From NCBI GenBank assembly GCA_963726745.1, contig CAVSDR010000003.1, positions 480,001-544,000 on the forward strand: a stretch of DNA of 64,000 bases. Direction: 5' to 3'. This document shows, one piece after another, positions 2,750-57,175 of the stretch (within the stretch, counting starts at the first letter, position 1; each line of letters starts with the position of its first letter). The DNA comes from an uncultured Verrucomicrobiae bacterium. Lineage in GTDB: Bacteria; Verrucomicrobiota; Verrucomicrobiia; Chthoniobacterales; UBA10450. The notes beneath the pieces were generated by a model. That model had not been told where the DNA came from. It saw only the letters and a program-made list of their open reading frames with translations, and ran no database searches. The position numbers and the translations under genes were made by a program.

Positions 2750-3825
2750 GCGGCGGAGACCGTGGGCAAGAGGCGCCATTGCACCTGGTTCGCCGTCAGG
2801 TCGGCAAAGTGTCGCTCGAGCAGGCGCTGCTCGATCCGCGCCCGCACCGGCGGATCCGAGGCCTGTGGCTCGTGTTTCCCGAGCAGCCGGCAAAGGACAA
2901 AACCATCCGCCCGCGGCGTCGGCTCCAGCAAGCTCCCCGGCGTCAGGCTCAGGAACCGTTGCTGCAGGTCCGGCGCGATCTGCTCCAGCGTCATCCCGGT
3001 TTGGCGAAAGGGATACCGCCCTTCCCGCGCCACTTCCTCCATGCTCATCCCGTCGTCGCGCACGCAAAAGAGCGCCTCGCTCGCCGCGTCTTTCGATTCC
3101 AGTTCGATCATCTCCACCTCGAAACGCGTCATCGGCAGGCGCACCGCGCCGAGCTCGCGCTCGATCGCCTCCGGCCGGAGCAGCTGCGCACACCGCGCGC
3201 GGTAAGCCGCTTCCAGCGCCATCATTTCCTCCAGCCAGGCGCGGTCGCGCCCGAGCGCGGCCAGCCAATCCTCGACCGCATCTTCGCTTAACTCATGGCG
3301 CGCGAGAAATTGCTCCTGCTGCTCGGCCCGCTCCGCATCATTTGCTTCGCCTGGCGCCGCCACCCGCCAGGCCAGCGCCAGCGCCATTCGCTCCAGCTCG
3401 CCGGTTAAAACCAGGTGCGCCACCAGCAGCTCCCGCTCATCCGCGTTCGCCTCCGCGTAGGGCCGGCTCTCGGCCGCCATCTTGCCGGCTAAATTTCGCT
3501 GCCAATAATTCCGCGCGAAGAAATTGCTGAAGTCCCCCAGGTCGAGCGCCCGCTCTTCCAGCCAGCGCTCCGTTTCCTCCGCGGTGATTAATTCGTGGCG
3601 ATAACGGAATTCCACCGCCGCCTGGTCGATCGCTCCCGCTTCCGGCTCCGCGCCGCTCGCCTCCGCCTTCCGCTCCGCCGCGCGCGCCGCCTGCAGCGCC
3701 TGCCACGGCCCGGTTAATTCCCCGCGAAAGTGCGCCGCATCGATCACGTCTGCCGCGGTGTATTCCCGCGAGGCACAGGCAAAGAGAATCCGCTGTCCCT
3801 TAGCGGCTGGCGCTGTGCTTGTCAT
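2746..3825 (-). CDS. Hypothetical protein with a degenerate PpiC/parvulin-like C-terminal region (putative maturation or secretion chaperone)
   Basis: Start MTSTAPAAK at 3825. C-terminal 'SMEEVAREG...LSLTPGSLLEP..DGFVL' resembles rotamase-like domains. Stop overlaps the transporter start. Confidence 0.55.
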   Translation of the reverse strand: MTSTAPAAKGQRILFACASREYTAADVIDAAHFRGELTGPWQALQAARAAERKAEASGAEPEAGAIDQAAVEFRYRHELITAEETERWLEERALDLGDFSNFFARNYWQRNLAGKMAAESRPYAEANADERELLVAHLVLTGELERMALALAWRVAAPGEANDAERAEQQEQFLARHELSEDAVEDWLAALGRDRAWLEEMMALEAAYRARCAQLLRPEAIERELGAVRLPMTRFEVEMIELESKDAASEALFCVRDDGMSMEEVAREGRYPFRQTGMTLEQIAPDLQQRFLSLTPGSLLEPTPRADGFVLCRLLGKHEPQASDPPVRARIEQRLLERHFADLTANQVQWRLLPTVSAA

Positions 3826-4139
3826 TCGTAGCTTCGGTTTTAGTGAAAAAGCCGGCGCGTTGTCGAGTGCGGCCTCGCAGGGGTTAAGCGCAGTCCGCCG
3901 GAGAGAACGGCCATCTCGCTGCCTAACGGGTGCAAGCAAAATGCCGCCTTGTCTTCCCCGGGAAATGCTCGAAACTAGCCCGCTCCCGGTTCGTTCCCCG
4001 CGCTCGGTCGAAAGACCGATGGGCGCACGGTCAACGCCAGGCGCCGCCAGTACGGCGCGCGCTCGCCGGGTGGCAGGCGCCAGCTGTTCTGGCGCAGTGG
4101 GTTTCGCGATGGGCGCCTCGGCGGCTCGTCGCCGCATTT

Positions 4140-4358
4140 ATGAATTCCGAAAAAGCAATCGAACTCGAAGGCCGCATCACTTCCGTCCTCGCGGGCACCA
4201 TGTTCCGCGTCCAACTCGCAAACGACCACATGGTCCTGGCGCATATCTCCGGGAAAATGCGCAAACGTTTCATCCGCCTGACCACGGGCGACCGCGTCAA
4301 GCTCCAGATGTCGCCCTACGATGTCAGCAAGGCGCGCATCGTCTATCGCCTCGGTTAA
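4140..4358 (+). CDS. infA: Translation initiation factor IF-1
   Basis: 72 aa; [27 protein letters not shown]...GDRV..MSPYD..KARI.YR. Confidence 0.97.
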
Positions 4359-55858: not shown

Positions 55859-55915
55859 GGTGGACGGTGCCCGACTTCCCCGCCGCTGACAACCGTGCGC
55901 GCGCCGCCGGCGCGC

Positions 55916-57175
55916 CTAGTGGAACTGCTCTTCCTCGGTCGAGCCGGCCAGCGCCGCGGTCGAACTTTGCCCGCCGCTGATCACCTGCGCGACCTCGTCG
56001 AAGTAACCCGTGCCGACTTCGTGCTGGTGCTTCGTCGCGGTATAGCCCTGAGCCTCGGCGGCAAATTCCTCCTGCTGCAACTCGGAGTAAGCCGCCATCC
56101 CGCGATCGCGATAGCCGGCCGCAAGCTTGAACATGCTGTAGTTGAGCGCGTGGAAGCCGGCCAGGGTGACGAACTGGAATTTGAAGCCCATCGCCCCAAG
56201 CTCGCGCTGGAACTTCGCGATCGTCGCCTCGTCGAGCTTCGCCTTCCAGTTGAAGGAGGGTGAGCAGTTATAAGCCAGGAGCTTGCCGGGAAATTTTGCC
56301 TGCACTTTCTCGGCGAATTTCTTCGCCTCCGCGAGGTCCGGCTTCGAAGTCTCGAACCAAAGCAGGTCCGCGAACGGCGCATAGCTCAGCGCCCGCGCGA
56401 TCGCCTGCTCGATCCCGGCGCGCACGTGGAAGAAGCCCTCGACCGTGCGTTCGCCTTTGATCACAAACTCGTGGTCGCGCTCGTCGACATCGCTCGTGAG
56501 CAAGGCCGCGCCGCCGGCATCGGTGCGCGCGATCAGGATCGTCGGGACATTGGAAACATCCGCCGCCAGCCGCGCCGCGGTCAAATTCCCGATCGCGGTG
56601 CGCGTCGGCACGAGCACCTTGCCACCCATGTGGCCGCACTTTTTCTCGCTCGCGAGCTGGTCCTCGAGGTGGACCCCGGCCGCGCCGGCTTCGATCATCG
56701 CCTTGATCAATTCGAAGACATTCAGCGGCCCGCCAAAACCGGCCTCGGCATCGGCCACGATCGGCGCGAACCAATCAATCCCACTCCCGCCCTCGGCATG
56801 CGCAATTTGGTCCGCACGCTGCAGCGCCTGGTTGATCCGCCTAACGACTGCTGGGACGCTGTTTGCCGGGTAGAGGCTTTGGTCGGGATACATCTGGCCG
56901 GCTAAATTCGCGTCCGCCGCGACCTGCCAGCCGCTCAGGTAGATCGCCTTCAAGCCCGCCCGCACCTGTTGCACCGCCTGGTTCCCGGTGAGCGCGCCGA
57001 GCGCGTGCACGTAGGGCTCGGAGTGGAGCAATTGCCAGAGCTTCTCCGCGCCGCGGCGAGCGAGCGAATGCTCGGGCACGAAGCTGCCTTGCAGTCGCTG
57101 GACATCAGCTCGCGCGTAGGTGCGCTCGATGCCCTGCCAGCGCTTGTCGGTGGACCAATCAGTCGAGTTTTTCAT
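55916..57175 (-). CDS. aceA: Isocitrate lyase
   Basis: [44 protein letters not shown]. Confidence 0.98.

Follow-up and report, generated by a model that had tools for sequence, protein, structure and literature searches.

Why would a run of ordinary bacterial genes carry one short DNA word again and again? The window analyzed here is a 64,000-nucleotide stretch (G000:C3:480001-544000) of a soil Verrucomicrobiae genome of 3.41 Mb in 7 contigs at 64% GC, hereafter the source genome, and it holds ordinary genes plus two tRNAs, its only Rfam matches. Named homologs of one of the genome's proteins carry Verrucomicrobiota and Chthoniobacterales labels, and the genome has weak matches to the Verru_Chthon cassette. 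An initial annotation had listed 18 copies of GGCTAAWT in the window and taken them for protein-recognized chromosomal sites, a second family beside a first dispersed word, motif A (GCCTAACGA; near-exact and family-wide). We call the second word motif B. Every one of the 18 coordinates proved exact, and none of 100 dinucleotide shuffles reached that number (1.69 ± 1.39 copies). The described flanks hold as well, with GCY before 14 of the 18, TY after 12 and Y after 17. By gene calls made in this analysis with a codon model, 15 copies lie within genes, one is intergenic and two touch gene ends, and all the described readings (L-A-N/K, x-L-A through TTA, and I-S-R) occur among them.

The 8-mer is the tip of a longer and looser site. 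An A stands eight bases upstream of it in 13 of the 18 window copies, and in aligned flanks information reaches 9 bases to either side of the first G, with no signal beyond these 19 bp within 50 bp. Expectation maximization (EM) gave the consensus SAWnKY-GYYG-gCTAWWTY, 19 bp and 16.1 bits, with an estimated 5,164 sites. Its layout is an AT-rich left arm, an invariant G-Y-Y-G core and an AT-rich right arm; A(-8), G(-3) and G(0) are near-invariant. The site forms a loose dyad, the matrix correlating with its own reverse complement at r=0.53 at one offset and at most 0.21 at the other 16, and neighboring bases depend strongly on one another within both arms. Exact repeats are scarce, the commonest exact 18-mer of motif B occurring in 7 copies. 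The annotation was therefore right that its 8-mer copies are real and fell short on the extent of the motif, which has about 4,000 copies in the genome. Among its near-matches, 24030 (15.6 bits) and 30768 (22.1 bits) are sites, and 46745 lies outside those scoring at least 14 bits, the threshold applied to a weight matrix trained on the source genome itself. It had also limited the overlap with motif A to CTAA; the common part is actually G-n-CTAA, and 180 of 1,433 A sites bear B's left arm and core as well.

The excess of motif B in the source genome is confirmed and larger than first described. GGCTAAWT occurs 629 times genome-wide on both strands, and motif B at 14 bits or more 3,892 times (1,932 + and 1,960 -), roughly one site every 0.9 kb; 80 of them fall in the window. 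Such abundance might be a by-product of codon or amino-acid bias, of mobile-element scars, of an integron attC box or of assembly artefacts: most coding copies sit in two frames, motif A corresponds to the attC end, and about 13 of 135 genes tested contain assembly indel errors, which inflate the intergenic class. Yet the excess remains under nulls that preserve codons or dicodons. GYYGGCTAAWT occurs 412 times in coding DNA, against 8.9 in a gene-wise synonymous shuffle and 23.4 in a dicodon model (8 replicates each), and at 14 bits coding DNA holds 3,186 sites against 190–250 (six null replicates), a 13- to 17-fold excess. Sense sites number 1,213 and antisense sites 1,518, where the nulls give 66 and 61. 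Enrichment holds in all six frames, 7- to 33-fold, and the full motif is recovered both in intergenic copies and in each frame class, which bears out the view of a DNA-level signal and not a protein motif. The attC inner box was rejected as a source, since no B occurs in the attC-like sites at C6:740-745 kb or in those next to integrases of relatives, which end in motif A. The former, at G000:C6:740674-744893 (L162), form an array of 123–124 bp attC-like sites with no integrase, each ended by motif A; the source genome has no integron integrase, though 73 of 121 family genomes do.

Motif B sites arose in place, by substitution. Aligned to orthologs of 12 relatives, sites gave 525 ungapped alignments out of 554. 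Amino-acid identity is 65.7% inside sites versus 74.2% outside, and codon identity at conserved residues is 47% versus 55%, so that the sites appear to have been written by both silent and non-silent point changes. The places themselves are slightly permissive: relatives compared among themselves share 73.5% identity at B-site positions and 76.8% elsewhere. Absence of the motif from orthologous genes had been offered as grounds for dismissing it, and this comparison cuts both ways. Relatives at 75% identity lack sites at orthologous positions, whereas five B sites are spanned, with no listed internal difference, by contigs 97–99% alike that come from two soil runs of a single study; differences near contig ends are unlisted, and neither run is necessarily independent of the source genome. 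Scores of at least 12 bits at orthologous positions occur in 21 of 196 alignments to the three other carriers described below and in 7 of 298 to eight B-poor genomes. With ungapped alignments, unrelated flanks and sites carried by near-identical soil contigs, the by-product explanation is largely refuted, and we hold it to be very improbable.

Motif B is spread evenly along the chromosome and avoids itself. There is no strand or position bias and no origin-to-terminus (ori/ter) gradient: strands are equal, counts are flat in 50-kb bins of six contigs, and no periodicity was found at 5–100 kb (p=0.15 and 0.50 for the two largest contigs). Typical genes carry about 1.0 site per kb and the 204 genes with the lowest GC at third codon positions (GC3) 0–0.44; motif B thins out in foreign DNA. 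Short intergenic gaps carry 2.31 sites per kb when convergent, 1.56 when tandem and 0.88 when divergent, and the 16S gene has none, being too short to weigh. B-B pairs 25–200 bp apart number 357 against 575 ± 23 expected (0.62), the ratio reaching 0.98 by 400–800 bp. A-A pairs at the same distance are depleted too (97 versus 213; 0.46), and A-B pairs are not (803 versus 717; 1.12), with no fixed A-B spacing besides overlap on G-n-CTAA. Each word is self-saturating and indifferent to the other, which argues for two readers, and the two also part company between genomes, G046 having B without A and G013 having A without B. The proposal of a second system separate from motif A therefore stands. 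Of opposite-strand B pairs within 70 bp there are 102, mostly overlaps of the AT arm in coding DNA; among 60 inspected, 8 are intergenic on both sides. At 3,288 gene ends, TAA or TAG stop codons overlap motif A in 239 cases and motif B in 85.

Among about 230 relatives, the clear carriers of motif B besides the source genome are three: G046, G011 and G015, one of them in another genus. Across 34 genomes of the genus, GYYGGCTAAWT counts are 539 in the source genome, 238 in G011, 113 in G015, 19–60 in seven and 2–17 in the other 24. A spaced B pattern in 201 family genomes gives 702 in the source genome, 139 in G046, 23–46 in four and 0–16 in 195. The bare core reaches 560 per Mb in the source genome, 479 in G046 and 209 in G015, with other genomes at about 110 or below; in sixteen genomes from outside the family B is at control level. 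G046 (94% complete) is an unpublished genome that underlies its dialect, the case of B without A, the tree and the competence-decay argument below; G011 is 71% complete. In EM on fetched DNA, the dialects of the source genome, G046 and G011 have the core G-Y-Y-G-g-C-T-R-W in common. In G046 (434 kb read) the left arm is strong, WGAKCG, the right arm is short and density is 1.8 per kb; in G011 (135 kb read) the left arm is missing, the right arm is the long one and density is 1.2 per kb. Motif A in G046 is at background (58 versus 44). In a PilC tree of 28 rows, without G011 and G015, G046 falls inside a set of B-poor genomes from another genus (100/100) and the source genome inside B-poor genomes of its own genus (99/96); the dialects are scattered and do not follow genome phylogeny.

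Wider searches added no further carrier. An 18-mer scan of 185,579 genomes returned 73 single matches, about the number estimated by chance and none with enriched flanks, and viral contigs gave 10 single matches, with flanks unexamined. Free EM on B-poor relatives collapsed onto codon periodicity, so these relatives may hold other words. Three A-poor relatives, G144, G080 and G096 (L101-L109, 60-kb samples), show candidate over-represented words, AACCCCAA and AGATCGACA. In G015, L040:7233-8130 holds four tandem copies of a 233-bp hairpin unit containing a GGCTAATT, perhaps akin to repetitive extragenic palindromes. Motif B is thus a DNA-level, lineage-specific, self-spacing 19-bp word, and we infer a putative protein that reads it.

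For motif A, such a reader has a candidate. A scan for basic proteins led to a 121-amino-acid protein with a Lys/Ala tail, encoded at G000:C6:137354-137719 on the minus strand (L464:9357-9719). The protein itself has no Pfam match; 13 of 39 relatives scanned match AP2 at E ≤0.01, and one matches the histone H1-like HC2 family. Its predicted structure is a small beta-sheet plus a helix, whose best structural match (VIA) is the ApiAP2 protein SIP2, a weak one at Z 3.3, and Foldseek with this model returned nothing at E 0.001. Neighboring Atlas clusters include one with AP2 in 15% of its members and another that is mostly Gemmatimonadota. Of 66 family genomes 48 have the gene, and none of 14 genomes outside the family does; the median frequency of motif A is 121 per Mb in those 48 and 27 (maximum 45) in 17 without it. 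An A word lies 10–32 nt before the ATG of the gene in the source genome and in 9 of 15 relatives, and another precedes a distant metagenomic homolog (L481), an arrangement that may be read as autoregulation. The protein follows motif A across genomes and carries an A word ahead of its start codon; at least A, then, seems to have an intracellular reader, and this AP2-like protein with its histone-like tail is a likely candidate for it. Distant relatives of the AP2-like domain (P0145, P0162 and P0249) occur in fusions with TIR or HNH domains, a hint of roles in DNA-sensing defense. The protein was rejected as a reader of B, since G046 lacks the gene and B-poor genomes have it. No description of motif B or of the AP2-like protein was found in the open-access literature, leaving out supplements, a possible home of word lists; motif B is undescribed as far as searched.

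By analogy, motif B may be the intracellular site of a putative chromosome-binding protein, abundant and sequence-specific; we favor this reading tentatively, as falling a little short of probable, because of the form of the site, the analogy with motif A and the damaged uptake genes described below. A loosely two-fold symmetric site with neighbor-dependent arms is the form typical of a dimeric, shape-reading protein. In this model, drawn from motif A and its likely AP2-like reader, some chromosome-binding protein would read B, and the reading would influence in turn which alleles become fixed. Under weak selection for being bound, site-making substitutions would fix wherever coding allows, and a second site within a few hundred bases would bring little gain. 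A related reader gene would have been gained, or its specificity sharpened, separately in a few lineages, with dialects resulting as the arm-reading parts diverged. The few intergenic inverted pairs support it too, unlike the terminators formed by DNA uptake sequences (DUS) and uptake signal sequences (USS). A precedent is the nucleoid protein Gbn, with thousands of specific sites (PMC9239103).

Motif B could instead be a USS-type uptake sequence: a pilus-tip receptor would prefer B-bearing fragments, and recombination would spread B through the core genome. We consider this possible, if on the doubtful side. Occurrence on both strands at about one per kb, point origin, permissive positions, loss from low-GC3 genes, even spacing and a fixed core with dialect arms all match DUS and USS as described in four sources (PMC2817400, PMC2397512, PMC7811141, PMC12616744). 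The source genome also has ComEC, DprA, ComM, PilB/C/T and about 18 pilin-like genes, with RecA frameshifted in the assembly. The pilins speak against uptake, as far as three of the roughly 18, profiled over 64–76 genomes, go. A PilX-like protein of the minor-pilin triad near dprA was not found in G046 or G011 and is present in B-poor genomes; the pilin after pilC occurs in 54 of 64 genomes and the one at C3:971.6 kb in 37 of 76, and none of the three tracks B or A. A further pilin, at C4:323 kb, seemed very basic, and its basic tail is an out-of-frame reading. No pilin is unusually close between carriers. A Verru_Chthon-like minor-pilin cassette at G000:C3:1029111-1035933 (L155), 29–38% identical to relatives' copies and free of A and B, looks recently exchanged.

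Genes linked to uptake are damaged in the strongest carriers. A ComEA-like SNase-HhH gene, whose HhH part is matched in full in 46 of 64 relatives, lies in two pieces on separate contigs of the source genome, is frameshifted in G046 and was not found in the 71%-complete G011. Its halves in the source genome are a nuclease at C4:17230-17943 and a start-less HhH remnant at C2:230142-230279. In G046, comM, the SNase-HhH gene and two orphan pilins are frameshifted or deleted (L110, L330, L283, L033), ComEC and DprA are intact, and frameshifts overall affect about 5 of 265 orthologs, the assembly being clean in other respects. A TPR gene adjoining mutS in the source genome is also broken in G046 and may be a competence gene. 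Judged from these gene sequences, the damage would seem to weaken the uptake reading, although the decay could be a recent loss after B was laid down. The lack of terminator pairs and a sister word, A, that points to a cytoplasmic reader also count against uptake.

A third possibility, which we think unlikely, is a cytoplasmic self-mark in recombination, repair or defense, Chi-like or HIP1-like, that biases which allele survives. A and B, though read separately, have the same avoidance range of 300–400 bp, as if set by one downstream tract length; the TIR and HNH fusions would suit such a role, and HIP1 raises transformation in a way that depends on methylation, according to PMC13756078. Against it, motif B has no Chi-type strand skew (280/259) and is not palindromic. 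Methylases were searched in two families, C5 (PF00145) and type I N6 (PF02384); both are missing from our searches of G046 and G011 and present in B-poor G013 and G002.

Several observations weigh against a chromosome-binding protein as well. Carriers have ComEC, DprA, PilB/PilC and some 18 pilin-like genes in intact form, and both strands, core-genome bias, even spacing and dialects are the published signature of uptake sequences (PMC2817400, PMC2397512). The distribution is flat, with neither ori/ter gradient nor 5–100 kb periodicity, and self-avoidance is weak in G046 (0.7–0.9). To our knowledge, no nucleoid protein has been shown to enrich its own site within genes by 15- to 30-fold. No B reader emerged from the searches. 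The source genome has a single HU/IHF gene and no second AP2-like gene (best E 0.31 and 1.1), and among the small basic or Lys/Ala-rich proteins and B-flanked genes listed for it there is no B reader. Conserved upstream B sites amount to 14 coincidences in 321 G046 genes, with no plausible DNA binder, and none in 103 G011 genes. The analogy has its own weakness: motif A stays at 46 per Mb or less in nine genomes that do have the AP2-like gene, and the 17 lacking it come from four lineages only, whose members are kin and not independent, so the analogy is itself a lead.

A broader picture can also be drawn, one we find rather doubtful. Soil Verrucomicrobia would rewrite their genomes around exchangeable pairs of cytoplasmic reader and word, A through the AP2-like protein and B through a mobile second reader, with dialects from arm divergence. 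Each reader would then spread its word to about one copy per few hundred bases, at a cost in codons and amino acids, and many 'uptake-like' bacterial words would be footprints of intracellular chromatin proteins rather than uptake tags. Hyper-abundant words of known cause come from two proteobacterial families, where the cause is uptake, and HIP1 of cyanobacteria is still debated; here one genome has two independent hyper-abundant words. Since motif B is longer and looser than DUS, USS and HIP1, k-mer scans catch only a fraction of it, and because it turns up or is altered in scattered lineages within a soil family that is very common, it offers natural gain-and-loss contrasts for a reader hunt. 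The cytoplasmic candidate for motif A makes the question of uptake versus chromosome testable with one purified 120-amino-acid protein.

Motif B sites in the window (positions from its first nucleotide; copy numbers are positions of the 8-mer GGCTAAWT)
Position	Strand	Feature	Bits	Context
335..57555	49 +, 31 -	80 motif B sites	≥14	weight-matrix scan
3478..3496	+	site of copy 3487	24.1	antisense in gene, N-L-A via TTA
6811..6829	+	site of copy 6820	16.9	sense, L-A-N
8058..8076	-	site of copy 8060	14.1	antisense, K-L-A
8313..8331	-	site of copy 8315	22.1	antisense, E-L-A
8690..8708	-	hybrid site		B left arm and core merging into motif A on the common G-n-CTAA
14203..14221	+	site of copy 14212	16.2	sense, L-A-K
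14757..14775	+	site of copy 14766	22.6	intergenic, complete left arm
17527..17545	-	site of copy 17529	22.0	antisense, I-S-R
18407..18425	+	strong site outside the 8-mer	23.9	T at the variable position after the core
19466..19484	+	strong site outside the 8-mer	23.1
20698..20716	+	copy 20707	<14	core 8-mer without left arm
21877..21895	+	site of copy 21886	17.2	antisense, I-S-R, histidine kinase gene
22358..22376	-	site of copy 22360	26.4	best in window; sense, L-A-N
28465..28483	+	site of copy 28474	21.0	antisense, start of radical SAM gene
30759..30777	+	near-match 30768, strong site	22.1
31152..31170	+	site of copy 31161	21.7	antisense, E-L-A
40713..40731	-	strong site outside the 8-mer	23.1
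42353..42371	+	site of copy 42362	16.9	sense; missing at the aligned place in 5 of 5 relatives
44645..44663	-	site of copy 44647	19.5	missing at the aligned place in 5 of 5 relatives
45507..45525	-	strong site outside the 8-mer	22.4	98% alike soil contig, no listed difference
46997..47015	-	site of copy 46999	20.9	its TAA is the stop codon of gene 47001-47495 (-)
53840..53858	+	site of copy 53849	25.4	antisense, family B polymerase gene; ungapped substitutions versus 5 relatives
55643..55661	+	site of copy 55652	24.4	same family B polymerase gene as copy 53849
56891..56909	+	site of copy 56900	21.2	antisense in isocitrate lyase

Other features of the window and genome stand apart from motif B. 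At window positions 95-3825, a long plus-strand open reading frame (185-3205) is a shadow, the codon model placing genes on the minus strand (95-2749 and 2746-3825). Positions 25803-28533 encode a UdgX-family uracil-DNA binding fusion with a radical SAM partner (TIGR03914/03915/03916), adjoining a ParA-like gene. Elsewhere, at G000:C6:176701-182700, 16S rRNA and tRNA-Ala are not followed by 23S, a marker of which sits at C6:826 kb; the operon is therefore unlinked. A CAACGC tandem repeat gives 178 matches of CAACGCCAAC.

Motif B works like the hyper-abundant words DUS, USS and HIP1 but lacks membership features of each. Like the USS of Pasteurellaceae (PMC2817400, PMC7811141, PMC12616744), it occurs about once per kb in both orientations, evenly, made by mutation in genes and scarce in acquired DNA, with AT-rich flanks around a short GC-rich essential core and with dialects. 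Unlike USS, it has no exact 9-bp core, bears arms on both sides in loose symmetry, forms no terminator pairs, has dialects scattered across genera instead of confined to subclades, and coexists with a second independent word. With the ComP-read DUS of Neisseriaceae it shares hyper-abundance, core-genome bias, tract-limited spacing and dialects on a fixed inner core (PMC2397512); DUS is a near-exact 10–12-mer, whereas motif B is a 19-bp, 16-bit matrix tracked by none of the three profiled pilins. Cyanobacterial HIP1 likewise runs to thousands of copies, falls in all frames and persists in spite of codon preference, and opinion on its function, too, is divided between chromosome structure and transformation (PMC5861425, PMC13756078). 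HIP1 differs in being an exact 8-bp palindrome that has cognate methylases, occurs throughout its phylum and is periodic at 10–90 kb, whereas motif B is degenerate, patchy and non-periodic, with no tracking methylase in the two families searched.

Chromosomal sites such as matS, SlmA-binding sites (SBS), Noc-binding sites (NBS) and parS number in the tens and are confined to, or excluded from, a region. Motif B, unlike these, has thousands of copies lying flat along the contigs, and it shows none of the replication-tied strand skew of Chi or of FtsK-orienting polar sequences (KOPS). Sites of IHF and Fis are, as motif B is, long, degenerate and shape-read. Gbn of Streptomyces is one protein with up to thousands of sites (PMC9239103). 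Unlike the sites of such nucleoid proteins (Gbn, IHF, Fis, Noc, SlmA, MatP), motif B has no ori/ter restriction and is poorest in divergent promoter gaps. In the same genome, motif A has G-n-CTAA, both strands, the same avoidance range and loss from foreign DNA in common with B. Motif A is near-exact and family-wide, matches the attC end and tracks the AP2-like gene, whereas motif B is long, loose and rare in the family and, in G046, occurs where that gene is missing.

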